Below the pieces are notes generated by a model. It was not told where the DNA came from, searched no databases, and saw nothing but the letters and a program-made list of their open reading frames with translations. The translations under genes and the position numbers were made by a program. Positions 17,693 to 45,886 of a DNA stretch of 64,000 nucleotides are shown piece by piece. The DNA comes from an uncultured archaeon (GTDB lineage Archaea; Iainarchaeota; Iainarchaeia; Iainarchaeales; JAAZKV01): contig CAZPWC010000001.1 in assembly GCA_964590155.1 (NCBI GenBank), forward strand, positions 9,651 to 73,650, in the 5' to 3' direction. Within the stretch, counting starts at the first letter, position 1; each line of letters opens with the position of its first letter.

Positions 17693-18286
17693 ATGTTACG
17701 CCGACTAGAAACCTTGACAAACGCTGAACTCGCACAACTAAAAGTGCGTTTAGGTGGCAAACCTGTTTTAGTTATTGTTCACCCTTTTTATGACGGCCAA
17801 GGAAAAAGCTTTCAAGAATTCGTCGCAGGTTCAAAAGCACACAACAAGATAATTATTATCGGAGAAGAGCACCAACAAAGACAAGCAACAGAAACTGAAC
17901 TTGAAAAAGCATGCTCGCATAATAAAGCAACCCTCCTTACATACTCAACAAAAACAACGTGCGGAACACCAATAATGGGTTGGCAAAAGCTGTTAAGACG
18001 ACTCGAATTAATGGGGGTAAAACGAGTTGTTCTCGGCGGAAATCATATTAAAGAAGAAAGTGTTAACACCCCAATATTCTGGAAAAGCATACTTTTAGGA
18101 ATAGAAAAAAATAGAAAATTAAACAAAAAAGAGAGAGAAAAACTAAGTACACAAAGAATGCTTCTACGCGCAGCAAAAGCAAGAAAAGCAGAGCACGTGT
18201 TAAGATACTGCGCAGGCTTCACTGCATCAAAACTTGCTGCGAGTGGCAAATTTAAAGTAAAAATGACTCGACATTTTTCTCGATAA
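17693..18286 (+). CDS. hypothetical protein (197 aa), possible paralog of 40099..40683
   Basis: GKPVLVIVHPFY resembles GPVLFLVHPQTH in the other gene. Both follow a tRNA-enzyme gene. Confidence 0.35.
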   Translation: MLRRLETLTNAELAQLKVRLGGKPVLVIVHPFYDGQGKSFQEFVAGSKAHNKIIIIGEEHQQRQATETELEKACSHNKATLLTYSTKTTCGTPIMGWQKLLRRLELMGVKRVVLGGNHIKEESVNTPIFWKSILLGIEKNRKLNKKEREKLSTQRMLLRAAKARKAEHVLRYCAGFTASKLAASGKFKVKMTRHFSR

Positions 18287-18362: not shown

Positions 18363-21335
18363 ATGCCTACAGATTATTTAGCTGAACTAATGAAAGATGC
18401 CAAATTAAAAGATACTGGCAAAATAGAGGAAAAAGAAGTCCCTACAAAACCAGAAGATAAAGAAGAACAATTAGCGCACGAAGCTGGAAAAAAACAAATG
18501 GAAAGTTTTAATGAAACATTTGAAATCGAGCCATCTGATCAAAAAGCCGAAACAGAAAAAGAATTAGAACAAGGGAAAAAAATCCAACTAAAAAGTTATG
18601 GAAATGTAAAAATATTTCAAATCCCAGGAAAGCCACTTAACTATTACTATGTCCCAACAATAAGACCATCAGCTGTTGAAAGAAAAATAATCAATACAAT
18701 AAAAGAAGCGACAACAAGATTAGTTAGCATTGCTTCTTACAAAATAAGAAACCCTGAAGAAAGAAGAATAATATACAAACAAAAAATAATTGAAATAATA
18801 CAAAACAATCCCTCGCTTAACATCCCTGAAAGCAGAGTTAATTATTACGCTGATGCCGTTGTAAGAGAAATGGTTGGATATGGATTAATTGACGAACTAA
18901 TCAAAGATGATAATTTAGAAGAAATAATGATTATCGGTCCGCAAAAACCTGTGTATGTATTTCATAGAGAATTCGAAATGATGACAACAAATGTTGAATT
19001 TTTTTCAGAACAAGAAATAGAAGATTTAATTAACAGAATAGCAAGAGAGGTTGGAAGAAGAGTTGATGTATCATCCCCCTTACTTGACGCAAGATTAATT
19101 GACGGATCACGTGTAAATGCAACTATCCCCCCAGCAAGCATAAGTGGAGGAACACTAACAATAAGAAAATTCAGACAAGACCCTTACTCAATAATTGATT
19201 TAGTGAAAATGGGAACATTAAGCAGTGAAGCGGCAGCGTTCTTGTGGGTTTGCGCTGACGGACTTGGCACAAAACCAGCAAACATACTAATCTCAGGAGG
19301 AACAGGTTCAGGAAAAACTACCCTCCTAAATGTACTTGCTTCATTTATTCCTGACCGAGAAAGAGTAATAACAATAGAAGACACAGCAGAACTAAATCTC
19401 CCAATAAAACACTGGATAAGAATGGAAGCACGACCGCCAGGAATAGAAGGAACTGGAGAACTAAAAATTGACATTCTTACAAAAAATTCACTAAGAATGA
19501 GACCTGATAGAATAATTGTAGGAGAAATAAGACACGAAGAAGCATTTACATTATTTACTGCAATAAATACAGGGCATGATGGAGCAACAACAGAGGATAC
19601 TTTAATTCAAATGGACGACGGCAACATAATCGAAATTGGAAAACTCGCCGAAAAATATATGACCACCCCAACAAAAGAAAAAGAATACGAATTCAGTGAA
19701 ATAAATGAGCCCCTGCTTGTGCCAAGTTTTAATAAAAAAACACTCCAAATAGAACCAAAACAAATAACAAAGATATGGAGAAAAAAAGTAACAGAAATGT
19801 TGTTAAAAATTAAACTAAAATCCGGAAAAGAAATTACAATAACACAAGACCACCCTTTTTATGTCGCACATAACGGAATACAAGAAATAAACGCTGAACG
19901 ATTACAAAAAGGGGATTTTATTTGCACGCCTGAAAAAATCCCATTATTTGCAGAAAGAAAACTAATAGAACCACACCTTGTAGGTCTAATATATGGAGAC
20001 GGACATGTTGGCCAAGAAGTAATAGAATTTGTAAACGCCGAAAAACAACTCGTAAATTCATTCATTGAATCAGCAAAAAATGTCACTCAAAACAAAATAA
20101 CCCAGAAAAGTTATGACAGATATAACCGTGCATTATTTTACGATAAGAAATTTATACGCGCCATGACAAAAGAGTATAATATTCCTCAAGGAAACAAAAC
20201 AAAATCTTTTAAGTTGGGTGAAGAAATACTTTGTGCAGAACAAAGTGAACTAGCACAATTAGTTAAAGGATTATTTGATAGCGAATCCCACGTAAATTTA
20301 CATTCAAACTCAATACAATTTGTTACTTCTAATAAAGATTTAGCAAACAAATTGCCACTCATTTTACAACGCTATGGAATAAAATCAAGCAAATATATAC
20401 AACAAAAAGACGGAAAGGGAAATACAGGACCCTACTACAAAATATCTATTTACGGTTTGGAAAACCTCAAACAATACAAAACATATATTGGATATGAGCA
20501 CACTAAAAAACGAGAAACTCTTGACACCTTATTAAAAAAAGCAAAACTGAGTGTAAATGTTATCCCCGGCTTATCAAAAGTATTAATTAATGCGAGAGCC
20601 GAAAACAATTTAACCCAAAAGGAACTAAGCGCACTTTTAGGAAACTCAACACCAAGCGTCATAAGCGCATACGAAACGAATCAAAGAAATCCAACAAAAG
20701 AACAAATAAAAAAAATAGGCCAAACAATTAATGGAGAAACCGCAAAACAATTAAGCAGACTCGCTGAATCAAAAATATTATTTGAAGAAATAACAGAAAT
20801 TAAAGAAATTAAACACGAAGGATATGTTTACGATTTAACGGTTAAAGATAATCATACATACATCGCAAACGGAACAATAATATCTAATTGCATGGGAACA
20901 GTACACGCAAATAGTCCGCAAGAAACAATAATTAGAGTAACAAACCCGCCGATGAATGTTCCACAAATTATGTTAAGCGGACTTGATTTTATAATTGTTG
21001 AACACAGATATTACGACAGAAAAAAAGGAACAATTAGAAGAGTGAGTGAAATTGCGGAAGTATATGGTGCTTTAGAAGGAAAACCAAGAGTACAAACAGT
21101 ATTTGCAAGAGACCCAGTAAAAGACAAACTAGAAAAAACAATACTTGACAGCTCTTACTTAAAAACCTTACAAGATTTTACTGGATTATCAAGAGAACAA
21201 ATAGAAGCAGAAATACAAATAAGAAAACAATTCTTAGAAAAACTAATTGAGAAAAATATAAGAGGATTAACGCAAGTATCTGAAGAAACAAAAGAATTCC
21301 TTGGCAAACGAAAAATATTCGGTGAACAACAATGA
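18363..21335 (+). CDS. type II/IV secretion-system ATPase (KlbA/FlaI/VirB11 family) interrupted by an intein
   Basis: Walker A ISGGTGSGKTTLLN; split motif NTGHDG | intein | CMGTVHANS. Confidence 0.85.
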   Translation: MPTDYLAELMKDAKLKDTGKIEEKEVPTKPEDKEEQLAHEAGKKQMESFNETFEIEPSDQKAETEKELEQGKKIQLKSYGNVKIFQIPGKPLNYYYVPTIRPSAVERKIINTIKEATTRLVSIASYKIRNPEERRIIYKQKIIEIIQNNPSLNIPESRVNYYADAVVREMVGYGLIDELIKDDNLEEIMIIGPQKPVYVFHREFEMMTTNVEFFSEQEIEDLINRIAREVGRRVDVSSPLLDARLIDGSRVNATIPPASISGGTLTIRKFRQDPYSIIDLVKMGTLSSEAAAFLWVCADGLGTKPANILISGGTGSGKTTLLNVLASFIPDRERVITIEDTAELNLPIKHWIRMEARPPGIEGTGELKIDILTKNSLRMRPDRIIVGEIRHEEAFTLFTAINTGHDGATTEDTLIQMDDGNIIEIGKLAEKYMTTPTKEKEYEFSEINEPLLVPSFNKKTLQIEPKQITKIWRKKVTEMLLKIKLKSGKEITITQDHPFYVAHNGIQEINAERLQKGDFICTPEKIPLFAERKLIEPHLVGLIYGDGHVGQEVIEFVNAEKQLVNSFIESAKNVTQNKITQKSYDRYNRALFYDKKFIRAMTKEYNIPQGNKTKSFKLGEEILCAEQSELAQLVKGLFDSESHVNLHSNSIQFVTSNKDLANKLPLILQRYGIKSSKYIQQKDGKGNTGPYYKISIYGLENLKQYKTYIGYEHTKKRETLDTLLKKAKLSVNVIPGLSKVLINARAENNLTQKELSALLGNSTPSVISAYETNQRNPTKEQIKKIGQTINGETAKQLSRLAESKILFEEITEIKEIKHEGYVYDLTVKDNHTYIANGTIISNCMGTVHANSPQETIIRVTNPPMNVPQIMLSGLDFIIVEHRYYDRKKGTIRRVSEIAEVYGALEGKPRVQTVFARDPVKDKLEKTILDSSYLKTLQDFTGLSREQIEAEIQIRKQFLEKLIEKNIRGLTQVSEETKEFLGKRKIFGEQQ
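19584..20888 (+). mobile_element. Ala1-type intein (435 aa) with LAGLIDADG homing endonuclease and an XRE-like HTH
   Basis: Block A ATTEDTLIQMDDGNIIEIGKL; LAGLIDADG motifs LVGLIYGDGHV and LVKGLFDSESHV; HTH LTQKELSALLGNSTPSVISAYE; ends IISN with Cys+1. Confidence 0.8.
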
Positions 21336-22429
21336 ATGATACTTTTTCATTTGACGAACAAGAAGTAAACAAAATCGTTGACACAATGAAAAAAAAATAT
21401 AAAGAAGAAGGACTTGTAATTGATGAAGTAAATACTAGCTTAAAAGAACTAAGAGGACTTATTGCGGAAGACACTTACTCTAAAATAGATATTGATAATG
21501 CTTCAGATGTTCAAGAAATAAGATCATCGCTAGCAAAAGTATTTGCAAATCTTTATTTAAAAATAAAAGGAATAATTAAACCCGCGCAAAAGTTTTTCAA
21601 AAACTTTACTGTCAGCCAAGAACTTGGATATTACTTATATTCAGCAAATATGAGTTACTCAGCAAACCAATACACAGCAATAGCTGTTACTGCCGGACTT
21701 GTTGTAGGATTATTTACAGCAATAATTGGATTACTAATTGGAATAACAACAAAAAATATTATTTTTATCACAACCCTCCCAATTGTAATTGGACTTATTG
21801 GATGGCTAGTTGGAACAATAATACTACTAATGATTCCAAAACAAAAAGCGGTTGCACGCGGAAATGCTTGCTCTGTTGAATTGCCATTTGCTTTAAGACA
21901 CATGTCAACCGAACTAAGATCGGGAATTGGATTATACAAAACACTACAAGCAGTGGCTTCGTCTAATTATGGAGTACTAAGCGAAGAATTTGCAAGAACA
22001 ATAACAGAAATAGAAGAAGGGGTTGATACAGGGGCTGCGCTAAAACACATGGCGCTAAGAACACAAAGCAAACCACTCAAAACAGTTGTAAACCACATGC
22101 TTAGAGCGATGAGGATAGGAGGAAATCTTTCCGAATCAATGAGCAACATAGCCAAAGATGTTTCTGATGATTTGAAAAACAAAATACTCGCTTTTTCACA
22201 AAACATGAACTTTTTTGCAGTAATATTTATCTTTATAGGAATAATTATTCCAGTAGCAATAATAATTTTAGGAGCAATAAGAAATTCTTCAATTGCAAAA
22301 GTAGGACAGGACTTGTTCAAATCAGTTCCATTAACTTTAGATGTCTTAATAGTAATTTATTTTGTTATAATGCCTATATTATTTATAATAATGAATATAT
22401 TTGTTTACAATGCGCAACCAAAAATGTGA
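21332..22429 (+). CDS. TadC/FlaJ-like pilus assembly membrane protein (single T2SS-F-like domain)
   Basis: Start overlaps the ATPase stop (ATGA). N-terminal soluble region followed by TM helices. Confidence 0.55.
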   Translation: MNDTFSFDEQEVNKIVDTMKKKYKEEGLVIDEVNTSLKELRGLIAEDTYSKIDIDNASDVQEIRSSLAKVFANLYLKIKGIIKPAQKFFKNFTVSQELGYYLYSANMSYSANQYTAIAVTAGLVVGLFTAIIGLLIGITTKNIIFITTLPIVIGLIGWLVGTIILLMIPKQKAVARGNACSVELPFALRHMSTELRSGIGLYKTLQAVASSNYGVLSEEFARTITEIEEGVDTGAALKHMALRTQSKPLKTVVNHMLRAMRIGGNLSESMSNIAKDVSDDLKNKILAFSQNMNFFAVIFIFIGIIIPVAIIILGAIRNSSIAKVGQDLFKSVPLTLDVLIVIYFVIMPILFIIMNIFVYNAQPKM

Positions 22430-23356
22430 GTGAAAAAAATGGGTTTGAATGAAATAGCAGAAAGATATGAGTACTGGGTTGAATTCAGCAAACTCAAATA
22501 CAAAGCAGAACCATGGGTACTAATAGCAATAGGAAGCTCTGTTACAGTCGGAATACTTTCATTCATGCTAAGCGTTGTTATAATAAAAGAAATTACATTA
22601 CTCCCCTTAGCTTTCTTTTTAGCAACATTTGTTTTACTAATGGGCTACCCTTACATGAAAAAAGAGTCAATAATTGATTCAATAGAAGACAATTTTAGTG
22701 ACGCGTTAAAACAAATGGCTGATACATTAAAAGCAGGAGATACTTACGAAAGCGCATTAAGAGAAGTAGCTAATTCTGAATATGGAAGATTATCTGAAGA
22801 AGTTAGCATTGCTTTAAGGAGACTTGAAGAAGGAGCCAACATGGAGACCTCACTAACGGGTCTTGCTGAAAGAATTGACTCAAGACTAGTTAAAAGAACA
22901 ATAACAATAATAGTTGATTCGGTAAAAACAGGAGCAAGCTTGGCCGATGTGCTTGACGAAATATCTGAAGATGTAAGAGAAATACACAAATTAAAAGAAG
23001 ACAGAAAAGCAAATACACAAATGCAATTCTTATTCATGGTCGCGGCAGGAGGATTTATTGCACCAATGATATTTGGAGAAATAACCGCAGTACTATCAAT
23101 ATTCAATGCAATAACAACGCAAGCAACACAAGCAGTTACAACAGCATCAATACAAAAAACTGATCAAGTAATAGCTGTGCTAATTCAAGGATACTTAATA
23201 ATAGAAGTTGTCGGAAGCGGAGTAATGATGGCAGTAACAAGAGAAGGAAAACCAAACAAAGCAATAATTTACATACCTTTATTATTATTAACAGCCTTTG
23301 TCGTATACTATACAACAGCATTTGTTATCAGAGGATTTTTGGCGGGAAGCATATGA
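22430..23356 (+). CDS. TadB/FlaJ-like pilus assembly membrane protein (second T2SS-F-like gene)
   Basis: Same architecture as the preceding gene and adjacent to it. Confidence 0.55.
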   Translation: MKKMGLNEIAERYEYWVEFSKLKYKAEPWVLIAIGSSVTVGILSFMLSVVIIKEITLLPLAFFLATFVLLMGYPYMKKESIIDSIEDNFSDALKQMADTLKAGDTYESALREVANSEYGRLSEEVSIALRRLEEGANMETSLTGLAERIDSRLVKRTITIIVDSVKTGASLADVLDEISEDVREIHKLKEDRKANTQMQFLFMVAAGGFIAPMIFGEITAVLSIFNAITTQATQAVTTASIQKTDQVIAVLIQGYLIIEVVGSGVMMAVTREGKPNKAIIYIPLLLLTAFVVYYTTAFVIRGFLAGSI

Positions 23357-23502
23357 TGGAAGAAAAAGCACAAGTACATTTAGAGTACTTACTAATAGCT
23401 ATTGGAGCAGTTGTTGTAGTAACAGTAGTAGCTTTGTACATTAAAGAAACTGCAAACAGCGCAGCACAAGCAACAATTGATCAAGCAAACCAAAACCCTT
23501 AA
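23353..23502 (+). CDS. short Flp-like prepilin (49 aa), class III signal peptide
   Basis: Hand translation MMEEKAQVHLEYLLIAIGAVVVVTVVALYIK...; not in the ORF track because it is under 60 aa. Confidence 0.5.
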   Translation: MMEEKAQVHLEYLLIAIGAVVVVTVVALYIKETANSAAQATIDQANQNP

Positions 23503-23544
23503 TAATTACTAAAATTAATTAAAGATAAAGAAAACCACTAAAAA

Positions 23545-23550
23545 GGAGGT
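23545..23550 (+). promoter_or_regulatory. Shine-Dalgarno GGAGGT 6 nt upstream of the pilin ATG at 23557
   Basis: aaaaGGAGGTttgattATG. Confidence 0.5.
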
Positions 23551-23556
23551 TTGATT

Positions 23557-23856
23557 ATGGAACAAAAAGCTCAGGCACCAAAGGCGCAGGGAGCAATAGA
23601 ATACCTACTAATAATAGGAGCAGCAATACTAGTAGTAGCAGTAGTAGTAATAGCACTAAGCGGAATAATTGGCGCTGGAAGTGATACTACCGACACAGAA
23701 GCAATAAATAGCACTTATAATGCACTGCAATGTCAAAAAGACTGCGGATATTTAGATGACGAAAGCGAAACATGCTGTGATTCATATAAAGACTATTGCA
23801 CATTACAAGGTCCGGACAGTGCAAAAACCTGCCAAAAAATAATTCCCGCGGAATAA
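23557..23856 (+). CDS. prepilin, Cys-rich paralog 1 (QGAIEYLL family)
   Basis: MEQKAQAPKAQGAIEYLLIIGAAILVVAVVVIAL, then a C-terminal domain with 7 Cys. The ORF-track start at 23551 is TTG. Confidence 0.6.
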   Translation: MEQKAQAPKAQGAIEYLLIIGAAILVVAVVVIALSGIIGAGSDTTDTEAINSTYNALQCQKDCGYLDDESETCCDSYKDYCTLQGPDSAKTCQKIIPAE

Positions 23857-24022
23857 ATAAAATTTAAACAAAGAAGGAAAGGAGAAGTAAAATCCTTTCC
23901 AACTTTCTTTTTTTAGACAAACCAAACTACAACAAATACAAAGTAAATCTAACAATAAGCCAACCTTTATATATCACTTATTTTATAGTTAAGTCAACGA
24001 AACCCCAACGGAGGTAATGAAA

Positions 24023-24298
24023 ATGGAAAAAAACGGACAAGGAGCAATAGAATACCTACTAATCATAGGAGCAGCAATACTAGTAGTAGCCGTAGTAGTA
24101 ATAGCACTAACTGGAGTACTAGATGCTGGTAATGATCAAACAAGCGATACTGATGTAGAAACATCACTTATGGCGCTAGAATGCCAAAAAGACAGCACAT
24201 ATTCACCAATGACATCACCTACTCAAACATGTTGTACAGAATTCCCTACGGAATATACAGCTACAAGCGGGACATGTTTACCAATAACAACCGCATAA
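24023..24298 (+). CDS. prepilin, Cys-rich paralog 2
   Basis: MEKNGQGAIEYLLIIGAAILVVAVVVIAL is near-identical to paralog 1 at the N-terminus. SD GGAGGT at 24010-24015. An alternative ATG lies at 24017. Confidence 0.6.
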   Translation: MEKNGQGAIEYLLIIGAAILVVAVVVIALTGVLDAGNDQTSDTDVETSLMALECQKDSTYSPMTSPTQTCCTEFPTEYTATSGTCLPITTA

Positions 24299-24496
24299 AA
24301 TAATTTTAACTAAAATTGGAAAGGAAAACAAAATCCTTTCCACTTTTTCTTTTTATCTGAACTTTCTTAAGCGCCAAAAAATTGCGAAGCAAAGCCAATC
24401 ACAGAGTGGTTGGCTCCCATACGCTCGCCTGCCCTTTAGGGGTGGGCCGGGCAAGCAATGCGATAGCTTTAAATTTAGAAAAAAGTTTAGATAGTA

Positions 24497-24835
24497 GTGG
24501 TGGTTGTTATACAAAGAGGACAGGGAGCAATAGAATACTTACTTCTTTTAGCGGCAGCAATTGTTGTTGTAGCAATAGTTGTTTCATTTTTGGGTTCAAC
24601 AATAGGGCCTGTCCAAGATACGGGCGACAATGAAACATACTCATACTTATGCGAACCAAAACCACAAGGACTTGAATCAGGCACTGCACAATGCGCATGC
24701 TATAATGGAAATTCGAACAATTACTTTGATACCACCGCAGAAGCAAAAGAGTATTGTTGCGAAGGGCAAAATAGCGCTTATTTGAAAATGAAATGGAACC
24801 AATCACGAACAGTTGATGCTGAAAAGTGTTCATAA
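24497..24835 (+). CDS. prepilin, Cys-rich paralog 3 (GTG start or degenerate)
   Basis: RGQGAIEYLLLLAAAIVVVAIVV; no ATG and no clear SD. Confidence 0.45.
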   Translation: MVVVIQRGQGAIEYLLLLAAAIVVVAIVVSFLGSTIGPVQDTGDNETYSYLCEPKPQGLESGTAQCACYNGNSNNYFDTTAEAKEYCCEGQNSAYLKMKWNQSRTVDAEKCS

Positions 24836-24850
24836 TAGAAGGAATTTTTT

Positions 24851-25021
24851 ATGGAAGAACGAGCACAAGTAAGTTTTGAATATTTGCTAACAGCGGTTTT
24901 TGCAATAGGATTAGCTATAAGCGCCGCAATATTAATTGAAACACTAAGACAACTTGCTTTGGAAGCCCAAGCAGAACTATTAACAGTAAGAACAAGAGTA
25001 ATAGAAGGATTAATGCAATAA
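24851..25021 (+). CDS. short Flp-like prepilin (56 aa)
   Basis: MEERAQVSFEYLLTAVFAIGLAISAAILIE resembles the 23353 gene. Confidence 0.5.
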   Translation: MEERAQVSFEYLLTAVFAIGLAISAAILIETLRQLALEAQAELLTVRTRVIEGLMQ

Positions 25022-25120
25022 CACAAATTATTGAAAGGACAACAAAAAACAAATTAATTAAAAGAAAAAACACAAAAAGCAACTTTTTTAATAAGGAAAA
25101 ACAACAATTAGCTGATACTA

Positions 25121-26209
25121 ATGATATATTATTTGCCAATAATAGTTTCCGTAATCGGACTAAGCATAGCAACATACACTGATCTGAAAGAAAGGATAGT
25201 TACAAACAAACTTAATTTTGGGTTAGCTGGAATTGGACTAATTCTTTACGGGATAATTGCAGTAATGGAAAACAGCCCGATAATATTTCTAATGTCAATT
25301 TTGGGTTTAATGTACGGATTTGTTTTCGGGTGGATCTTATGGAAACTCGGAATATTTGCTGGAGGGGATGTAAAATTATTCATGGCTTTAGGCGCGCTAA
25401 ATCCGCTAACACCCGCACTAGTACAAACAGGGATACTAACAACATCAAACACCCCCCTATTTCCAATAACTTTGTTTATTTATTCATTGGTTTCTTTCCT
25501 CCCTTACGGATTTTTAGTAGTGCTGCAAAAACTAAGCAAAAATAAAGAATTCAGAAAAAAATTGTGGATAGAAACAAAAAAAAGAATAGCTGACGGAATA
25601 AACCTATCTGTTTTTTCAGGGGCGCTGTACACAATATTTACTACGACTCAAATCCCCACTCTAATAGTTCTGCCACTAATAATTATTTGGGGATTAAGAA
25701 AAGAAAGAAATGCTTTGACAGTCGGAGCAACTCTTGCAGCAATAATAATTTCTCCGCAAGAATTTGTAAAAAATATTTTTGCAACACTAATAATAGTTGT
25801 AATTATTTACGGAATAATAAAATTAATGCTGTCACTAAGACCGCTACTTGTAAGCGAGGTAAATGTAAGCAAATTAGAAGAAGGGATGATTCCTGCAAAA
25901 ACACTTGTATGGAAAGGAAAAAAAGTTGTTGAAATTGAACCGCTTTCCATCGCAAGCGCATTTATGGCGCTAAAAAAAAGAAAAACAACAGAACTATTAA
26001 AACCAAGAAAAGAGATAATTTCTGCAATGAAAGCACGAGGATTGATTAATGAAGAAATCAAAGAACTAAAAACACTCGCAAAAAAAGGATTAATAAGCAA
26101 AAAGATGCAAATAAAAGAATCAATGCCCTTTGTGCCAACAATGTTAATAGGATACATCATTTGTTTAATTGCAGGCGACGCAATATGGATAGTTATTTTT
26201 GGATTGTGA
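25121..26209 (+). CDS. prepilin/preflagellin peptidase (A24 family, FlaK/PibD/EppA-like)
   Basis: Catalytic Asp motifs TDLKERIVTN and FAGGDVKLFMALGA; polytopic membrane protein. Confidence 0.75.
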   Translation: MIYYLPIIVSVIGLSIATYTDLKERIVTNKLNFGLAGIGLILYGIIAVMENSPIIFLMSILGLMYGFVFGWILWKLGIFAGGDVKLFMALGALNPLTPALVQTGILTTSNTPLFPITLFIYSLVSFLPYGFLVVLQKLSKNKEFRKKLWIETKKRIADGINLSVFSGALYTIFTTTQIPTLIVLPLIIIWGLRKERNALTVGATLAAIIISPQEFVKNIFATLIIVVIIYGIIKLMLSLRPLLVSEVNVSKLEEGMIPAKTLVWKGKKVVEIEPLSIASAFMALKKRKTTELLKPRKEIISAMKARGLINEEIKELKTLAKKGLISKKMQIKESMPFVPTMLIGYIICLIAGDAIWIVIFGL

Positions 26210-26218
26210 AGTGATACA

Positions 26219-26662
26219 ATGAAAAGAGGACAAACTTCAATAGAGTTCATATTTTTGATACTAATAATAGTTATTTACTTAGTGACAATAGTTCGACCAG
26301 CATTTGATAGCGCGCAAAGCTCTTTTGAGGACATAGATAAAGTAACAAAAGCAAGCAACGAAACACAAAAAATAGTAAACTCAATAAACAGAATAAGCTC
26401 ACTAAGTGATGGGTCAAAAGAAACACTATTCATTACTTTGCCGGAAGGAGTGGAGATAAATTGTTATAACGAAGGAAAACTTGATTTTATGGTAGAAATA
26501 AATACTAATGGCATAAACCCCAACATAGAAAGCTGCGCAAAAGATGTGTGCCAAAAAGAATATCAAACGTCGCCACTCAACTGTGAAATTACACAAATAC
26601 TTGGCGCAGAAAAAATAATTGTAGAAAAAGATGGAACAACAATAACAATAAAAGTCGGGTGA
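26219..26662 (+). CDS. prepilin-like protein
   Basis: MKRGQTSIEFIFLILIIVIYLV class III signal. Confidence 0.55.
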   Translation: MKRGQTSIEFIFLILIIVIYLVTIVRPAFDSAQSSFEDIDKVTKASNETQKIVNSINRISSLSDGSKETLFITLPEGVEINCYNEGKLDFMVEINTNGINPNIESCAKDVCQKEYQTSPLNCEITQILGAEKIIVEKDGTTITIKVG

Positions 26663-26666
26663 TTAT

Positions 26667-27002
26667 TTGAGAGGACAAGTAGCATTTGAAACACTATTTG
26701 TGTTTGTAATAATACTAACCACAACAATCTTTCTAACAAGTCTTTTTTTGCAAACTAACGAAGCAACAATATCAGAAAGCTTAGCTAGAAATGCGGTAAC
26801 TGAACAAGCCGCTTTGCAGGGAAAAAAAATTGTTATAGAAAGTGTTTCTTTTGAAAAAACAACAAATATAATAATAACAATAAATGTAATGTGCGAAGAA
26901 ATCCAAGAAACGATATTTGACACCCAAAAAATAGAAGATCTAATTGAAGAAAAAACAAGCGCGCAAAATGCGGGAATAGTAATAAATAAAAAGCAACTCT
27001 AG
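26667..27002 (+). CDS. prepilin-like protein
   Basis: MRGQVAFETLFVFVIILTTTIFL. Confidence 0.5.
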   Translation: MRGQVAFETLFVFVIILTTTIFLTSLFLQTNEATISESLARNAVTEQAALQGKKIVIESVSFEKTTNIIITINVMCEEIQETIFDTQKIEDLIEEKTSAQNAGIVINKKQL

Positions 27003-27062
27003 GTTTCGACAAAAAGCGAAGAAAGAGACGTGTTTTTATTATCTCAATAAAAAAACACAAAT

Positions 27063-27395
27063 ATGGATGACAAAAAAATAACGCTTATTTGCGGAGCGAT
27101 AGTTCTTTTTGGAATAATTATTTCAGCAATGTTCTATGAACCTGAATTTCAAAACACTTCAATAAAAGAAATGCTAAACACAAAAGAATCAGCAAAAGGA
27201 ATTATTTTTGCCAGAGTTGATTATGTAATAAAAAATTATCCAACAACGCAAGCGATAATAAATGACGGAACGACAGCAACCATTTACTATCCAAAAGAAA
27301 CTAATCTGAAAAAGAATGATTTTGTATACGCTTATCTTGAAACAGAAGACAAAAACAAAAAAACTTTTTACGCCTACAAACTGGTGAAAGATTGA
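27063..27395 (+). CDS. single-pass membrane protein
   Basis: N-terminal TM ITLICGAIVLFGIIISAMF. Confidence 0.35.
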   Translation: MDDKKITLICGAIVLFGIIISAMFYEPEFQNTSIKEMLNTKESAKGIIFARVDYVIKNYPTTQAIINDGTTATIYYPKETNLKKNDFVYAYLETEDKNKKTFYAYKLVKD

Positions 27396-28549
27396 TTGCA
27401 GGCATAATTATAGGAACAATACTTGGAATAATCGCAGGACTAATGCCAGGACTACACACAAATAACATAGCTCTAATGCTTATACTTCTGCCAATCGCTG
27501 ATGAAGAGCTTGTTACAATTATCTTAACACTTGCAATAGTGCAAACTTTTGTCGAATTCATTCCAGCAACTTTTCTTGGCGCACCCACAGCAAACACCTT
27601 TGAGGGAGTGCTTCCCGCACACAAAATGTTTTTGGAAGGAAAAGCCCTTGAAGCAATAATGCTATCAATTTACGGGGGGATAATAGGAACTGTATTAAGT
27701 GTTTTTTTAGCGCCACTATTTTTTTTATTTATAGAAAAAAACTCAAAAGAAATAATTCTTGTAACCCCGTTAATATTAATATTCGCGATAATAATTATGG
27801 TAAATAGTGAAAATACCGCCAGAAAGAAAGTTATTGCATTACTAATTGTTATTGGAGCGGCAACACAAGGAATGTTTTTTAAGGATCAATTATTTCCACT
27901 AATAACAGGATATTTTGGATTAGCTACTTTGCTTTATTCTTTGAAAGAAAAAAACAAATATGTCAAGCAAGAAGAAAAGATAAATGTTAAATGTAATTAC
28001 TTACAAACAGGGATAGGCGCTTTTGGGGGAACGATAGTAGCTTTAATGCCTGGAATAGGAACTAATACCGCGGCGGGAATAATAAGAACATTTCAAAACA
28101 AAATTAACGGGAAAGATTATTTATCAATGATAGGAGCCATAAATATTTCAAATTTCTTTTTTGGATACGCTGCACTATTTGCATTAGGAAAAACAAGAAA
28201 CGGGGCAATGGTTGCAATGCAAAACAAAATTATGACAACCCAAGAACAGTTAATCTTTGGAATAATAATAATGATTATTGCTACAGGAATTGGAGCAATA
28301 TCAACAATAATCCTATCAAAAAAAGCAATTCACCTTTTCAATGAAAAAAGAACAATAACACTCACAAAAATAAGCATAATGATAATGATTCTTCTTGTAG
28401 GACTATTCAACGGAGCGACAGGAATAATTTGCCTTGTTTTCTCAACTTCCTTAGGATTAATAACAAACACACAAAAAGTGAAAAGAAGCCTTTGCATGTC
28501 AGCGCTAATCGTACCAACCCTGTTTTTCTATCTATTCATCCTGATTTAA
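27392..28549 (+). CDS. TctA-family (DUF112) membrane protein
   Basis: Repeated GLMPGLH and ALMPGIGTNTAAGII motifs. Confidence 0.45.
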   Translation: MIAGIIIGTILGIIAGLMPGLHTNNIALMLILLPIADEELVTIILTLAIVQTFVEFIPATFLGAPTANTFEGVLPAHKMFLEGKALEAIMLSIYGGIIGTVLSVFLAPLFFLFIEKNSKEIILVTPLILIFAIIIMVNSENTARKKVIALLIVIGAATQGMFFKDQLFPLITGYFGLATLLYSLKEKNKYVKQEEKINVKCNYLQTGIGAFGGTIVALMPGIGTNTAAGIIRTFQNKINGKDYLSMIGAINISNFFFGYAALFALGKTRNGAMVAMQNKIMTTQEQLIFGIIIMIIATGIGAISTIILSKKAIHLFNEKRTITLTKISIMIMILLVGLFNGATGIICLVFSTSLGLITNTQKVKRSLCMSALIVPTLFFYLFILI

Positions 28550-28566
28550 TTTATGTGGACAAACTT

Positions 28567-28929
28567 ATGTGGACAATAAAAAAGATTCTTTTAGAAGAAA
28601 TTTGCATATCGGCAAAAAGATACTACCCTAAAGAATTCCTCTGCTTTCTTGGCGGAAGCAAAAAAGAAAAAAAAGCTGATGAAATAGTTCTTTTGCCAAA
28701 TACAAGCGGAAATGATTATGCAAGCATATTTGATACTGCAATACCAATTGACGACACTATTGTTGGAAGTGTTCACTCACACCCTAACAGTTACGCTTTA
28801 CCAAGCACAGCAGATAAAAAGTTTTTCCAACGATATGAAATAAATGCAATAATTGACGGGAGCTATGCTCCCCAAAAAGTTCGCTTTTTTGATAACAAAG
28901 GAAATGAGGTAAAAGTCGTTATAGAGTAG
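28567..28929 (+). CDS. JAMM/MPN+ metalloprotease domain protein
   Basis: JAMM motif GSVHSHPNSYALPSTAD. ATG at 28567, inside ORF-track entry 28429..28929. Confidence 0.65.
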   Translation: MWTIKKILLEEICISAKRYYPKEFLCFLGGSKKEKKADEIVLLPNTSGNDYASIFDTAIPIDDTIVGSVHSHPNSYALPSTADKKFFQRYEINAIIDGSYAPQKVRFFDNKGNEVKVVIE

Positions 28930-28979
28930 ATTAAAATCTTTAAGGCAAAATTAAAAAGCAGAAAAACAATTAATTAAAC

Positions 28980-29384
28980 ATGAAAACGGCTTTTAAAAAA
29001 GGGCAAATAAGCATTGACCTCATTATGATAATACTCGTTATTGTTGTTGCGCTTGGCGGATTAACAATGATTACAGCCAGCCTTTCCACAACGCAAGAAA
29101 AAATAAACATACACCAAGAACTTGAAAGAAGTGCGCTAAAAATATCAAACGCAATAATATACGCAAAAACACTTGACGGAACCACTTTTGAAATAATAAT
29201 AAATCTTCCAAAAATAAGGTACAAAAAACTGAGTGGAAATCAACTTGTTAGCGTAACTGAAAATGAAGTAACAATAACAGAAACAATTAGTGGAGAAAAT
29301 ATTACAGTCGTTGAAAAAACAAATAAACCTGATTGGATGCAAGTAACTACAACACAAACACAAGTGGTGATACAAAATGCGTAA
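28980..29384 (+). CDS. prepilin-like protein
   Basis: MKTAFKKGQISIDLIMIILVIVVALGG. Confidence 0.5.
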   Translation: MKTAFKKGQISIDLIMIILVIVVALGGLTMITASLSTTQEKINIHQELERSALKISNAIIYAKTLDGTTFEIIINLPKIRYKKLSGNQLVSVTENEVTITETISGENITVVEKTNKPDWMQVTTTQTQVVIQNA

Positions 29385-29871
29385 AGGCCAGATATTTTCC
29401 ATAGATTTTCTTATAGCAATGATAATAGTAGTACTAATCATTGGAACATTTGTTTTAATTGTTGAAAAGAAGAATTTTGATGCACGAGAGAATTTTGAAG
29501 CAACAAAACTAGAACAAAAATTGGGAGCGGCTGTCTTTGCCCTCATCAACACTAATTATTCGTGCGAAGCGGAAGGATCTAAAATCATGTACAGCATCGA
29601 TAAGGAAAAAGTACTGGCTGAAAAAGACACGCTAAAAGAAAAACTTGGAATGATGGATTATAGCCTGCAAATAAAATTAATTGGCACAGGAGAAACAGAA
29701 ATATTAAATGAAGACGAAACAGGACGAAATATTTATGTTATTGATTTTGATATAATGGTTTGCGAAAACAGCAGTGGGATAGATCTTAATGATACTTTTT
29801 ATTGTTCTAACGGAACGTGTGAAAATGGAAATTTGAAGAAAGAAAAACTAATTATTGGGGCGAGGAAATGA
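29377..29871 (+). CDS. prepilin-like protein
   Basis: MRKGQIFSIDFLIAMIIVVLIIGTF; overlaps its neighbours by 4-8 nt. Confidence 0.5.
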   Translation: MRKGQIFSIDFLIAMIIVVLIIGTFVLIVEKKNFDARENFEATKLEQKLGAAVFALINTNYSCEAEGSKIMYSIDKEKVLAEKDTLKEKLGMMDYSLQIKLIGTGETEILNEDETGRNIYVIDFDIMVCENSSGIDLNDTFYCSNGTCENGNLKKEKLIIGARK

Positions 29872-30134
29872 AAAAAGGAGTAATTTTCACAATAGAGGCC
29901 ATAATTGCACTTACGGCAATAATTATTTTGATAGGGGCCCTTGCGAATACCCCTACAGAAAAACTTGAAGACCTCACTAAAACAAAAGTAATAATACAAG
30001 CAGGAACAGCACTAAATTTAGGGGAAAGTTATATACTGCCAGAAAAACAAAATTATTACTGCCTAACAACAATGGATTATGATCTTCAAACTAAAGAATA
30101 CATCCAAAGAAGTGCATGTGGTGGTTTTGAATGA
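29868..30134 (+). CDS. prepilin-like protein
   Basis: MKKGVIFTIEAIIALTAIIILIGALA. Confidence 0.5.
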   Translation: MKKGVIFTIEAIIALTAIIILIGALANTPTEKLEDLTKTKVIIQAGTALNLGESYILPEKQNYYCLTTMDYDLQTKEYIQRSACGGFE

Positions 30135-30550
30135 AAGGATTTATTGAAATAATTGTAATAGGGCTTATCGTAACTGGCGCGCTAATTTTGCTTGCAACAA
30201 ATTCTGCAATAGCTGAAGAAAATAATCCCGGGCAAGAAATAGCGGAAACAGCATTTTTCATAAATGCATTTGAAAAAACAATAACAAAATCAGCTACTGA
30301 TTGCATTTGGGAAACTACAGAAGCGCTAAATTTGTGCATTATGCAAAAATCAACAGAAATAATGCAAGAACTAAGTAATGAAAAAATAAACTGCACTGTA
30401 GAAATAACAACAATTGACCTCACTACAGCCCCAAAAAATGCTGAACTTAAATACGCTTGCGAAACAAATAATCTTGATGGAAAAAATACCCAAGTAAGTG
30501 TTTCAAAGCAAATAACGCTAAAAGATATTACTCCCATAGAAAGTCCCTAA
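30131..30550 (+). CDS. prepilin-like protein
   Basis: MKGFIEIIVIGLIVTGALILLA. Confidence 0.45.
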   Translation: MKGFIEIIVIGLIVTGALILLATNSAIAEENNPGQEIAETAFFINAFEKTITKSATDCIWETTEALNLCIMQKSTEIMQELSNEKINCTVEITTIDLTTAPKNAELKYACETNNLDGKNTQVSVSKQITLKDITPIESP

Positions 30551-37152: not shown

Positions 37153-38685
37153 TTAGCCTTCAGAAGAAACCATTTCCAAAACTTTCTTAGGATTATAATA
37201 ATAGGTTTGGATAACTTCCAAAACATCTAATGGTTTTGAAACGTTCTTTTCAATCATCCACTCAATAATCATCCTCCGCGTATCAATTTCTTTTTTGATT
37301 TCATTTTTTGTTAAACCTGACTGCGCTGCTAAAGAATCCATTAAATGACTCGGCACATCAGTTCTGCGAACGCAACCTTTTGCTTCATCAAAGTCATAAA
37401 TATTTCCGAGTAAAACTTTGTTCTCCATCCTAGAAACTTCAGCAATTTCCACAATTGTTCTCTTAAGACCGCTGTTTTTTGTGAACTTTCTTTGCATAAC
37501 AACAATTAAATCAACTAAAGGAAGCATTGATTGAGGAACAGAAAAAGGGCGCTCCTGCAATTTAATAATTGCTTCGCGGGAATTATTAGCATGAACTGTT
37601 CCCAAACAACCAGCATGACCATTATCCATTGCAGTAAAAAGAGTTGTTGCTTCTTCACCACGAACTTCCCCAACAATTAATCGATCAGGACGCATACGCA
37701 AAGAGTTCTTCAACAACTGATTCATTGTTACCTCTTCATCAATAGAGTGCTTCGCTTCAAGAGCAACCCAATTATCCCGACCAAGCAAAGACAATTCCAA
37801 AGTATCCTCAATACTTATAACACGCTCGTGCAAGCGCATAAAATTCGCCAATATATTTAGCATAGTTGTTTTACCTGAAGCTGTGCCCCCAACAACCAAA
37901 ATATTTTTTGGAAAAGCACCAAAACCATCAACAACAACCCACAAAAAAGCCGCTACTTCAGAAGAACAGGTTCCGCCAGAAACCAAATCAAGAACTGTCA
38001 AAGGAGTGGGAGAAAATTTTCGAATAGTAATTGAAACCCCTTTTGGAGAGATCTCAGAAAACGTAGCATTAACACGCGAACCATCAGGCAAATGCGCATC
38101 AAGCAAAGGAAATTTTTCATCAAAAGACTTTCCAGAACTAACAGCAATCTTTCTTAGCAAAGCATCAATTGATTTTTCATCAAGAGACAAATTAACTTTA
38201 CACATCCCAAACTTTTTATGAAAAACAAAAATGCTGTCAGGAGCATTAACCATTAGTTCTTCTAATTCATCATCAAAAGAAAAAAAGTAAAGTTGTTTCA
38301 AACCAATCGCATTATGCAAAACAATCTCGGCAAACAATCCTTTATTTGAAACAAAAGAAACTTTTGAAACAAGATCAATCATTGATTCAAGAAGAGAAAG
38401 AAAAATTGTTTTAGAAGGCAAAACATCAACTAAACCATTAATTTCAACAACAGAAACGATTTGGTCACGAAAAGAATCAGAAAAATCTTTTGGCAAAGAA
38501 AAAGAATTAAGTTCGGAAAAAGGACTCTTACGCTGAATTATTTGCTGAAGCGATTTAGCAAATTTTGATTCTTTTTCCGAAAGAGGAAACTCTCGCAAAA
38601 CATAAAAGTTATTTGAAACACCCTCAAAAATCTCGGCAAAATCTGATTCAGCAAGCTTTTTTAGCCGCATATCTGTGAAGTCCAT
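37153..38685 (-). CDS. second type II/IV secretion-system ATPase (FlaI/TadA-like), no intein
   Basis: VVGGTASGKTTMLNILANF and contiguous AMDNGHAGCLGTVHANNS. Confidence 0.8.
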   Translation of the reverse strand: MDFTDMRLKKLAESDFAEIFEGVSNNFYVLREFPLSEKESKFAKSLQQIIQRKSPFSELNSFSLPKDFSDSFRDQIVSVVEINGLVDVLPSKTIFLSLLESMIDLVSKVSFVSNKGLFAEIVLHNAIGLKQLYFFSFDDELEELMVNAPDSIFVFHKKFGMCKVNLSLDEKSIDALLRKIAVSSGKSFDEKFPLLDAHLPDGSRVNATFSEISPKGVSITIRKFSPTPLTVLDLVSGGTCSSEVAAFLWVVVDGFGAFPKNILVVGGTASGKTTMLNILANFMRLHERVISIEDTLELSLLGRDNWVALEAKHSIDEEVTMNQLLKNSLRMRPDRLIVGEVRGEEATTLFTAMDNGHAGCLGTVHANNSREAIIKLQERPFSVPQSMLPLVDLIVVMQRKFTKNSGLKRTIVEIAEVSRMENKVLLGNIYDFDEAKGCVRRTDVPSHLMDSLAAQSGLTKNEIKKEIDTRRMIIEWMIEKNVSKPLDVLEVIQTYYYNPKKVLEMVSSEG

Positions 38686-38734: not shown

Positions 38735-40093
38735 ATGGACAAGTTATACTCGAAAGTACTTAGGAAAGTCACCCCTTCAAAAAAAGAGCTAAAAAAAGAA
38801 GAAAAAATGTTTTTGGAAATCGAAAAAAAGATAATGAAGATTGAGGGAAAACACTCGCACGTTGAATGGTGCGGAAGCTCTGCAAGAAACACTCACTTAC
38901 ACGGAGATCGAGACTTAGACCTATTTGTTATGTTTGAAAAAGAACTTGATGAAAAAGAACTAGAAATTGAAGGACTAAGAATCGGAAAAGCGGTGTTTCG
39001 CGGACAAAAATGGGAAAAAGCTTATTCACAACACCCCTACATTCGAGGAAACTATAAAGGATTTGAAGTAGAAATAGTTCCAAGCTACAAAGTAAGCAGC
39101 GGAGGAGAAATAAAAAGCGCTGTTGACAGAACCCCTTTTCACAACAAGTACTTGCTTAGAAAACTAAGCGAAAAACAAAAACAAGAAGTACGACTACTAA
39201 AACAATTTATGAAAGGAATTAACTGTTATGGTGCTGATTTGAAAAGTTGTGCTTTGCCAGGATATGGAATGGAATTACTAATCTTGCATTACGGAAACTT
39301 TGACCAGACAATACAAGCAATAGCTGAATGGACACCGGGAAAAATATTATTATTTGAAAATGCTGAGGAAAAGGATGCGGAACAATTCAATGGAGCTCCA
39401 CTCATAATAATTGATCCGGTTGATAATAACAGAAATGTCGCATCCGCGCTCTCACTTGAACAATTTGAAAGAATGATTTACGCGACAAAAAGATTCATTG
39501 AAGCACCGGAAGAAAAATTCTTTTTCAGACAAAAAACAAAACCCTTGCCAAAAAAAGAACTAAAAGATGAGCTGAAAAAAAGAGAACTTATTGCTGTGCT
39601 TTCAACTTTTCCAAAAAGTATCTTAGCTGACATCATGTGGGGACAATTAAGAAGGTTTTTGAAAAAAACTGAAAATCGCCTAAAAGAAAAAGATTTTGTT
39701 GTCGAAAGAGCTGACTTGTGGAGCGATGAAAAACAAGTTGCTTTTGTTTTTACTTTAAAAGAAAAAGAACTCCAAAAAGTAAAAACTATTTACGGGCCAC
39801 TAGCGAGCGACGAAGAAAATGCGAAAAGGTTTTTAGAGAAAAAAAGAAAACTAATTTCAGGACCTAGAGTGGAAGAAGGCAAACTTGTACTTGAAGTTGA
39901 AAGAGAAGAAACAATGGCAATTGAAGTGGTAAAAAACCTTATGAAAGAAAGCGCAAAAACAGAAAAAAAAGGAACAAACAGCGTTGCAAGAAAATCCAAA
40001 GTACTTAATGAAGAAGGAATTATAAAAAACTATAAAGGAGAATTTGCAAGCTACTTAACAAGGTACTTGAAAGGAAAAGAAATATTTGAGTGA
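38735..40093 (+). CDS. cca: archaeal class I CCA-adding enzyme
   Basis: EWCGSSARNTHLHGDRDLDLFVMF nucleotidyltransferase motif. Confidence 0.85.
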   Translation: MDKLYSKVLRKVTPSKKELKKEEKMFLEIEKKIMKIEGKHSHVEWCGSSARNTHLHGDRDLDLFVMFEKELDEKELEIEGLRIGKAVFRGQKWEKAYSQHPYIRGNYKGFEVEIVPSYKVSSGGEIKSAVDRTPFHNKYLLRKLSEKQKQEVRLLKQFMKGINCYGADLKSCALPGYGMELLILHYGNFDQTIQAIAEWTPGKILLFENAEEKDAEQFNGAPLIIIDPVDNNRNVASALSLEQFERMIYATKRFIEAPEEKFFFRQKTKPLPKKELKDELKKRELIAVLSTFPKSILADIMWGQLRRFLKKTENRLKEKDFVVERADLWSDEKQVAFVFTLKEKELQKVKTIYGPLASDEENAKRFLEKKRKLISGPRVEEGKLVLEVEREETMAIEVVKNLMKESAKTEKKGTNSVARKSKVLNEEGIIKNYKGEFASYLTRYLKGKEIFE

Positions 40094-40098
40094 AAAAA

Positions 40099-41739: not shown

Positions 41740-41823
41740 CGGGCCCGGAGGGAATCGAACCCCCATCTCGAGATAGCTTCTTATTTCCGAAGTCTCGCCG
41801 CTTATCCATTGGCAGACGGGCCC
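41740..41823 (-). tRNA. tRNA-Arg(TCG) with 12-nt intron at 37/38
   Basis: Minus-strand fold: acceptor GGGCCCG/CGGGCCC; D-arm with GG in loop; anticodon stem CGAGA/TCTCG; loop CTTCGG|intron|A; T-arm GGGGG-TTCGATT-CCCTC. Intron 41775..41786. Confidence 0.6.
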
Positions 41824-44529: not shown

Positions 44530-44531
44530 AA

Positions 44532-45257: not shown

Positions 45258-45277
45258 ACAAAAAAAGAATTAATAAC

Positions 45278-45481: not shown

Positions 45482-45510
45482 TAACATCACCAAAAAAACC
45501 AAAAAACTAA

Positions 45511-45717: not shown

Positions 45718-45886
45718 AAAAACACCTTTTAACTAAACTCACCGCGACTAAGTAATTAACCGAAGACAAGGTTTAAAAAAGTAGCTAAAATGACTAAAAA
45801 CAAGCTGCAAAGGAAAAGCTATCCAAACAAAACAAAATCCCCTAAGAGGGGTCAAGATTCACAAAATCGCCAAAATTAAACCTTCT

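Follow-up and report, generated by a model that had tools for sequence, protein, structure and literature searches.

The genes packed on the forward strand at positions 18363-30550 of the 64,000-nucleotide (nt) stretch of contig CAZPWC010000001.1 analyzed here (the window) are essentially certain to form a type IV pilus gene cluster. The locus contains an intein-bearing secretion ATPase, two platform genes with a single T2SSF domain each, an A24 prepilin peptidase and 11 pilin-like genes, and it probably belongs to the Epd-like class of archaeal pili (System 1, or clade 1 of Makarova), an assignment that we hold with good confidence and that was made from gene content and sequence comparison. 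The host is a DPANN archaeon of the Iainarchaeota (Diapherotrites), in which the cluster is vertically inherited and complete.

Gene content of the locus

The list of open reading frames (ORFs) shows 20 tightly packed forward-strand genes across 18363-30550. Those assigned to the pilus are given below with the basis of each call, the hyphen in each pilin motif preceding residue +1.

18363-21335 (+), pilus assembly ATPase precursor, TadA/CpaF/EpdL-like, 990 amino acids (aa), 555 aa when spliced; Pfam T2SSE (3.5e-38), Intein_splicing, LAGLIDADG_3 and HTH_3
21332-22429 (+), platform protein 1, 365 aa, one T2SSF domain; Pfam T2SSF (4.3e-22)
22430-23356 (+), platform protein 2, 308 aa, one T2SSF domain; Pfam T2SSF (3.8e-16)
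23353-23502 (+), short pilin S1, 49 aa, EKA-QVHLEYLL, about 43 aa mature; class III rule, weak Class_IIIsignal match
23557-23856 (+), Cys-rich pilin Q1, 99 aa, PKA-QGAIEYLL, 6 Cys; class III rule, Class_IIIsignal just under cut-off
24023-24298 (+), Cys-rich pilin Q2, 91 aa, KNG-QGAIEYLL, 4 Cys; Class_IIIsignal 27.4 bits
24497-24835 (+), Cys-rich pilin Q3, 112 aa, QRG-QGAIEYLL, 6 Cys; Class_IIIsignal 29.2 bits
24851-25021 (+), short pilin S2, 56 aa, ERA-QVSFEYLL; class III rule, no Pfam match
25121-26209 (+), long-form prepilin peptidase, 362 aa, EppA-like architecture; Pfam Peptidase_A24 (2e-13), Arc_PepC and Arc_PepC_II
26219-26662 (+), minor pilin, 147 aa, KRG-QTSIEF, 4 conserved Cys; Class_IIIsignal 26.2 bits
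26667-27002 (+), minor pilin, 111 aa, RG-QVAFETL; class III rule, no Pfam match
28980-29384 (+), minor pilin, 134 aa, KKG-QISIDL, first of a conserved four-gene block; class III rule, orthologs
29377-29871 (+), minor pilin, 164 aa, RKG-QIFSIDF, second of the block; class III rule, orthologs
29868-30134 (+), atypical minor pilin, 88 aa, KKG-VIFTIEA, third of the block; class III rule, orthologs
30131-30550 (+), atypical terminal pilin, 139 aa, MKG-FIEII, last of the block; class III rule, orthologs

Pfam matches together with a class III signal rule identified all four core components of a type IV filament system within the locus: a T2SSE ATPase, T2SSF platform proteins, an A24 peptidase and class III-signal pilins. 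The home-made rule asked for K or R followed by G, A or S, with an acidic residue between +3 and +7 and a hydrophobic stretch free of charges, and was applied to the 357 ORFs of at least 40 aa on both strands of the window. It selected 11 ORFs, all of them within 23353-30550 and none elsewhere in the window, in agreement with the original prediction of at least 11 prepilin genes, and nine of the 11 have Gln at +1 together with Glu or Asp at +5 or +6. The Pfam Class_IIIsignal profile reached its cut-off for only three of these ORFs (24017-24298, 24497-24835 and 26219-26662), with 23551-23856 just under it and 23353-23502 matched weakly.

The original prediction, made from the letters and the ORF list, placed each of the named genes correctly on the forward strand, and Pfam domains backed its intein-bearing ATPase, both single-domain platform genes and the A24 peptidase. 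The 4-8 nt start/stop overlaps that it described were borne out by the coordinates (21332/21335, 23353/23356, 27392/27395, 29377/29384, 29868/29871 and 30131/30134). Its picture of a contiguous cluster held as far as the common strand was concerned, but three non-pilin genes at 27063-28929 split the six pilin genes that follow the peptidase after the second of them, and the last two of those six are atypical and have no Gln+1. Profile searches that it proposed returned T2SSE, T2SSF and Peptidase_A24 matches, but none of the pilins matched Pfam Flp_Fap or TadE, even at E <= 10; what recalls Flp is only their length and the EY motif.

Motor ATPase, platform proteins and peptidase

The cluster ATPase has a Walker A motif, GGTGSGKTT, and the end of its gene overlaps the start of platform 1 by 4 nt. 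When the spliced sequence was compared with proteins in the PDB the best match was CpaF (257.7 bits, 1.6e-75), followed by afGspE (230.9 bits) and FlaI (212.7 bits).

A second, stand-alone T2SSE ATPase of 510 aa, with no intein, is encoded on the reverse strand at 37153-38685. Its best solved relative was afGspE (2OAP; 233 bits), ahead of FlaI (164.6 bits) and CpaF (160 bits), and no platform, pilin or peptidase gene adjoins it. It might serve the cluster's platform as an extra motor, or be what is left of a different system. We also considered whether orf197 (17693-18286) was a paralog of the 197-aa ORF at 40090-40683, each being paired with an ATPase, and rejected this as the two had no significant similarity.

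Platform 2 corresponds to the C-terminal half of FlaJ/UpsF, aligning with positions 193-462 of the 465 in the NCBIfam FlaJ model. Platform 1 gave its best alignment to the N-terminal half of NCBIfam UpsF (36-253 of 484) and more weakly with FlaJ 263-430, so its assignment to one half is less clean. Neither platform protein had a match in the PDB sequence search. The public ENA gene call P0252 (683 aa) treats the two genes as one, with the TGA at 22427-22429 read through as Trp. In the window the two genes are indeed in the same frame with only that TGA between them, and TGA terminates 13 of 45 window genes. A stop codon was found between the platform genes in 57 of 57 relatives; we regard the fused call as a gene-calling artefact because the relatives have TGA, TAA or TAG at this point and the frames of the two genes vary.

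The prepilin peptidase lies in the middle of the pilin genes. Its Arc_PepC and Arc_PepC_II matches are C-terminal domains, the protein has extra transmembrane (TM) segments, and its profile matched FlaK (3S0X) across the N-terminal catalytic core only. All 17 homologs compared keep the catalytic Asp21 and GGD83 unchanged. The NCBIfam EppA model aligned with it colinearly over positions 7-330 of 334.

Short and Cys-rich pilins

Five of the pilins lie between platform 2 and the peptidase. The start of S1 overlaps the platform 2 stop, and the protein has no globular domain; S1 orthologs were found in 45 of 64 loci of related genomes (see below). S2 is the best conserved pilin of the locus, being present in 70 of 73 loci with a median identity of 54%. 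Q1 and Q2 share a 106-nt repeat at their 5' ends that is 86% identical, and Q2 is read as a recent tandem duplicate of Q1.

A strong GGAGGT Shine-Dalgarno site had been reported ahead of the QGAIEYLL pilins, and this proved correct for Q1 (23545-23550, 6 nt upstream of the ATG) and Q2 (24010-24015) but not for Q3; the two sites are among only seven GGAGGT sites in the window. From their positions the likely starts are the ATG at 23557 for Q1 and the ATG at 24023 for Q2. A perfect TATA box, TTTATATA, lies upstream of Q2 at 23966-23973, and each of the two genes is followed by the same terminator-like structure, identified by reading the sequence:

23876-23914 (+), terminator-like 8-bp hairpin GGAAAGGA/TCCTTTCC followed by a T-run, after Q1
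24318-24354 (+), identical 8-bp hairpin GGAAAGGA/TCCTTTCC followed by a T-run, after Q2

Q1 and Q2 can therefore be read as strong independent expression units, which would suit abundant structural subunits. Q3 has a GTG start and no Shine-Dalgarno site, with a TATA-like TTTAAATTT about 25 nt upstream, and its transcript is possibly leaderless.

Between the Q2 terminator and Q3 a GC-rich segment (about 24385-24470, +) stands out in the AT-rich spacer and folds into several hairpins with a minimum free energy of -39.4 kcal/mol (z = -3.2). The element was seen only in this organism and in its closest relative, L086, where the flanks are conserved and the first hairpin differs in sequence yet still pairs. 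A search of Rfam gave no credible match for it. A small RNA is one possibility for it, an element that regulates the pilin genes another.

Minor pilins and the terminal four-gene block

The 147-aa pilin directly after the peptidase is present in 66 of 68 loci, and its residues G4, Q5, E9 and F10 are invariant in 32 orthologs. A word-index search for its homologs gave three proteins, a number set by the limits of the index. An AlphaFold2 model built from a 3-sequence alignment has a helix at residues 3-60 plus a beta domain, with a confidence score (pLDDT) of 81.8.

The last four pilin genes form a block whose order and N-terminal motifs are conserved among relatives. Its final two members were accepted as pilins mainly because their N-termini are conserved in orthologs, despite the lack of Gln+1. 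Orthologs of the 88-aa pilin keep KG followed by [FLMI]xF[ST]xE, and most orthologs of the 139-aa terminal pilin have no acidic residue near +5. In L086 the ortholog of the terminal pilin (6067-7098) is 343 aa long, is 48% identical over the pilin part and ends in a C-terminal Laminin_G_3 module. The last pilin of L028 is 355 aa long, and in L020 and L022 the orthologs of the 164-aa pilin are of doubled length (348-356 aa). Adhesin-type modules thus seem to be swapped on and off minor pilins among relatives, a pattern to be expected if minor pilins form a tip or priming complex whose adhesin can be exchanged. With the lectin-like module of the L086 ortholog in mind, the terminal pilin is a candidate tip adhesin.

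Conservation across the Iainarchaeota

The genes flanking the cluster are archaeal housekeeping genes, encoding threonyl-tRNA synthetase (ThrRS), ABCE1, Pelota, Nre, RFC, Elp3 and a CCA-adding enzyme. The GC content is about 34% and the homologs of the peptidase carry the names Candidatus Iainarchaeum or Diapherotrites. A scan of one genome per species gave 80 loci, almost all labelled Iainarchaeum or "archaeon" and including the complete genome GW2011_AR10 (CP010424), and all window proteins were compared with these loci by tblastn. Gene counts here and elsewhere in the text are over the loci that cover the position in question.

The synteny comparison that the original prediction had proposed found the same gene order in these 80 Iainarchaeota loci. 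The order was kept down to about 30% peptidase identity and runs ThrRS, ATPase, platform 1, platform 2, short pilin, one to three QGA[IL]EYLL pilins, short pilin, peptidase, 147-aa pilin, 111-aa pilin, orf110, TctA, JAB, four pilins, ABCE1 and Pelota. The ATPase was present in 50 of 51 loci, platform 1 in 52 of 53 and platform 2 in 55 of 56. In the 23 loci that span the whole region the class III rule picks out between 7 and 10 pilin-like genes, the median being 8, and 175 of these 196 genes encode Gln+1. The 11 pilins of the window are therefore at the upper end of the phylum-wide norm, and the excess over the typical count is due in part to the recent tandem duplication among the Q pilins. 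In the literature searched we found no description of a pilus for Iainarchaeota.

Class of the system

Two platform genes with a single T2SSF domain each, together with short major pilins, mark a monophyletic clade that comprises the Epd-like and Tad systems (Denise 2019, PMC6668835), and the long "9-TM" EppA peptidase has been reported only with clade 1 (Makarova 2016). System 1 is described from methanogens, Thermococcales and DPANN, with two genes for the platform and "a high variety of pilins" (Sivabalasarma & Albers 2026 preprint). In Methanococcus maripaludis there are 10 EppA-type pilin genes whose products have signal peptides of 5-13 aa, Gln+1 and Glu+5 (PMC3875500). We assign the locus to the Epd-like class because it combines split single-T2SSF genes, Gln+1 and Glu+5, pilins of only 49 and 56 aa that have no globular domain, a peptidase of long form that aligns colinearly with the NCBIfam EppA model and an ATPase whose nearest solved relative is CpaF. 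The description "Tad-like type IV pilus locus" in the original prediction was correct in substance, given the core type IV filament parts, the CpaF-nearest ATPase and the short pilins with a Flp-like Glu-Tyr motif. The same prediction found it unusual that pilins so many and so diverse surround a split TadB/TadC pair, and this was not supported because both traits are published hallmarks and defining features of Epd-like/System 1 systems (the split pair also of Tad) and are found throughout the Iainarchaeota.

Several observations weigh against the assignment or make parts of it less secure. The split platform is not exclusive to clade 1, as two tadC-like genes occur in certain clade 2 loci too. 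The lead of CpaF over afGspE for the cluster ATPase is modest (257.7 versus 230.9 bits), and this ATPase is 45% identical to the second ATPase of the window. The NCBIfam scores were all far under their equivalog cut-offs: for the ATPase the FlaI model was highest at 273.6 bits (cut-off 550) and the TadA-family model TIGR03819 gave 220 bits (cut-off 373), while EppA gave 40 bits for the peptidase (cut-off 450). Six of the 11 pilins had no significant Pfam Class_IIIsignal match (one scored 9.4 bits, E = 1.4), and a Foldseek search of the modelled 147-aa pilin against the PDB returned no significant match.

Working model and alternative readings

In our working model the parts are those observed in the locus and the assembly steps are taken from characterised Tad, Epd and type IV pilus homologs. 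The ATPase precursor would first splice out its KlbA-type intein (described below), and the spliced enzyme, as a hexamer, would drive a membrane platform assembled from the pair of half-size T2SSF proteins. Translation would be coupled along the ATPase gene, the platform genes and S1 through their 4-nt overlaps or direct abutment. Prepilins would enter the membrane by their hydrophobic N-terminal helix and be cut after the Gly or Ala at -1 by the mid-locus EppA-like A24 aspartyl peptidase, leaving Gln+1 and Glu+5. The shaft would be made of the very short pilins (about 43-50 aa mature), the presumably strongly expressed Cys-rich QGAIEYLL pilins, or both. The six larger pilins, and especially the last four-gene block, may form a priming or tip complex whose terminal member can carry a lectin-like adhesin in relatives. 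Those Epd and Tad relatives that have been characterised serve in adhesion. Attachment to surfaces or to other cells is also the most likely task of this filament, and the adhesion or cell-cell contact suggested in the original prediction is plausible. Phylum-wide conservation suggests that the locus is probably central to the attachment of these small cells to surfaces or partners.

Three other readings of the locus were weighed. One machine might build two filaments, with the 49- and 56-aa pilins going into a thin fibre of Flp/Epd-like type and a second fibre consisting of the Cys-rich QGAIEYLL pilins, which would have promoters and terminators of their own and a variable copy number. Two distinct pilin classes do share one N-terminal motif here, the copy number of the Q pilins differs between loci, and the literature on System 1 proposes two pilus types; Q1 and Q2 also come with their own Shine-Dalgarno sites, TATA box and terminator-like hairpins while S1 is coupled to a platform gene. 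As a mixture of major and minor pilins in one fibre explains the same data and the case for two fibres is purely inferential, we consider two filaments rather unlikely. That the locus is an archaellum locus, intact or degenerate, is hardly credible to us. The FlaI model did give the highest NCBIfam score for the ATPase and JGI labels homologs of the peptidase FlaK, but this FlaI score is half of the equivalog cut-off and FlaI was the weakest of the three top solved relatives of the ATPase. The platform here is made by two genes and not by a single FlaJ, the pilins fall well short of archaellin length, and Pfam searches of the cluster and of most other window ORFs of at least 150 aa found no archaellin, FlaF/G, FlaH or FlaX/CDE gene.

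Type IV filaments serve in DNA uptake or as pseudopili in other organisms. The filament might not be mainly an adhesin, and be instead a pilus for uptake or exchange of DNA or a short pseudopilus that feeds nucleotides or other substrates to a reduced DPANN cell. The small-genome host and the conserved transporter-family gene TctA inside the locus could be taken to favor such a role. TctA homologs elsewhere are, however, unlinked to pilus genes, and by Pfam the cluster has no ComEC-like channel, DNA-binding pilin, nuclease or substrate-binding protein with a class III signal. With the adhesive function of the characterised relatives, and with the lectin-type module on a relative's terminal pilin pointing to glycan binding, we judge this reading very improbable and keep to adhesion as the more likely role.

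Intein of the ATPase

The ATPase gene is interrupted by the following element, identified by Pfam and by reading of its junctions:

19584-20888 (+), intein, 435 aa, beginning with Ala1 and ending with Asn followed by Cys+1, carrying both LAGLIDADG endonuclease and HTH_3 domains

The insertion lies within the His-box of the ATPase, between NTGHDG and CMGTVHANS, so that the junctions read NTGHDG followed by ATTED and IISN followed by CMGT. The intein of Methanocaldococcus jannaschii KlbA (MJ0781; PDB 2JMZ and 2JNQ) is homologous (E 6e-27 for 2JMZ); both splicing halves align, and the alignment spans an identical junction of NTGHDG and Ala. Judged by sequence the element is a class 2, KlbA-type intein with Ala1 at the same extein site as in MJ0781, and it is predicted to splice. 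The two inteins have in common this site, Ala1, the C-terminal Ser-Asn and Cys+1, whereas M. jannaschii has a mini-intein of only some 170 aa and that of the window reaches 435 aa with an inserted LAGLIDADG homing endonuclease and HTH_3 domain. The latter is of XRE type, at about residues 743-790 of the precursor (1.2e-09). HTH_3 is an uncommon accessory DNA-binding domain for an intein. As the intein splits a catalytic motif, the unspliced ATPase should be inactive, and pilus assembly would then depend on splicing.

An intein occupies the NTGHDG site in about 11 of about 60 Iainarchaeota relatives, with alleles that begin with Ala, Ser or Cys, and this sporadic occurrence fits a mobile intein. 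Among the alleles of L056, L057, L081, L046 and L080 some are Cys-first (26-28% identical to the window intein), one begins with Ser and one call is Arg-first. The ATPase of L082 has an insertion of about 500 aa at a different position.

Genes embedded in the cluster and other features of the window

The three non-pilin genes that separate the 111-aa pilin from the terminal block are as follows.

27063-27395 (+), orf110, small protein lacking a prepilin motif, with a single TM helix at its N-terminus; Pfam scan, class III rule
27392-28549 (+), TctA-family membrane protein, 385 aa; Pfam TctA (5.9e-34)
28564-28929 (+), JAB/JAMM metalloprotease, 121 aa, with the motif HSHPNSYALPSTAD; Pfam Prok-JAB (3.4e-09)

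The stop of orf110 overlaps the TctA start by 4 nt, and the two genes are read as translationally coupled. TctA was present in 50 of 56 and JAB in 43 of 48 of the Iainarchaeota loci. No TctB or TctC partner was found near TctA, and no pilus genes were found near its homologs in Woesearchaeota, Aenigmarchaeota and Syntropharchaeales. A role of TctA, JAB and orf110 as pilus components was considered and set aside as unproven, since ThrRS, ABCE1 and Pelota are syntenic too and TctA occurs elsewhere without pilus neighbours. The three genes are most likely bystanders kept by phylum-wide synteny, and orf110 is probably not a pilus part.

At 60246-61952 (+), 30 kb from the cluster, the window encodes a transglutaminase-like protein of 568 aa; surface peptidases that belong to the transglutaminase family have been linked to clade 1 pili (Makarova 2016). 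A DNA-repair neighbourhood occupies 42481-51812 and contains a Rad50-like gene (42481-44529), a HerA-like DUF87 ATPase (47539-49074) and NurA (50733-51812), with a 518-aa ORF that has no Pfam match (45887-47443) between the Rad50-like and HerA-like genes. A tRNA of 84 nt at 41740-41823 (-) was found by Rfam (42.8 bits) and missed by ARAGORN, and it may hold an intron or be atypical.

Comparison with known systems

One of the closest known systems is the Epd pilus of M. maripaludis. Both systems have an ATPase with two half-size platform genes, a dedicated peptidase of long form encoded in the midst of pilin genes, some 10 genes for pilins whose signal peptides are short and which have Gln+1 and Glu+5, and very short, headless subunits of the major-pilin type; both also have a pilin with a sugar-binding-type module, which on the side of the window is found only in the close relative. 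The M. maripaludis genes are, however, spread over at least four loci, whereas those of the window are gathered in one locus of 12 kb. Five of the window pilins have Tyr+6, and so an EY motif of the Flp type, which the M. maripaludis pilins do not. The window signal peptides often end in Ala and not Gly, there is a Cys-rich pilin family, the peptidase scores far under the EppA equivalog cut-off, and the host is a member of DPANN and not a methanogen.

Loci for type IV pili in cluster 2 DPANN (Nanohaloarchaeota, Woesearchaeota, Nanoarchaeota and others; Hamm et al. 2024, PMC11291902), for which a role in cell-cell interaction was proposed, are likewise found in DPANN hosts and have an ATPase and a platform annotated as CpaF-like and TadC-like. 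They are described with coiled-coil sigma-1-like proteins and other neighbours, none of which the Iainarchaeota locus has, and the pilin set of the latter is much larger.

With the bacterial Tad/Flp system (type IVc, as in Cpa of Caulobacter crescentus and Tad of Aggregatibacter) the locus shares the CpaF-nearest ATPase, the split platform in the style of TadB and TadC, pilins of about 50 aa with Glu-Tyr at +5/+6, larger minor pilins like TadE/F and a compact operon with a peptidase of its own. It differs in the peptidase, which is of the long archaeal Arc_PepC form and not the short TadV/CpaA, and in Gln+1 and the short signal peptides of archaeal type. The Pfam searches, which covered the cluster genes, most other window ORFs of at least 150 aa and two shorter ones, found no secretin RcpA, TadD, TadG or TadZ. 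A monoderm archaeon would not be expected to have these four. We reject a place within the bacterial Tad family itself on three counts: the lack of Flp_Fap and TadE matches, the lack of secretin, TadZ, TadD and TadG in these searches, and the archaeal long form of the peptidase.

A bolder reading, which we put forward as a long shot, is that of all extant archaeal systems the Iainarchaeota locus stands nearest to the ancestral one from which Bacteria received Tad by transfer, and that its last minor pilin may in addition bear an exchangeable lectin-type module that acts as a tip adhesin specific to a host or surface. It would draw on the single compact operon, the CpaF-like ATPase, the split platform and the pilins of about 50 aa that join the archaeal Gln+1 with the Flp Glu-Tyr. 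If true, the locus would offer a tractable model for the origin of Tad and for cell attachment by cluster 1 DPANN.

Taken as an Epd-like pilus the locus is no new kind of system; it is a clean and complete single-locus example of one, sister to bacterial Tad. The combination of Glu-Tyr with Gln+1, the single-locus organisation and the modular terminal pilin are details of some interest, and the locus provides comparative material on pilins with the Flp-type EY motif, on a variable adhesin module of the terminal pilin and on activation of a motor ATPase that would depend on splicing. System 1 in DPANN generally and type IV pilus loci in cluster 2 DPANN were already known, and what is added here is a well-preserved Iainarchaeota member.

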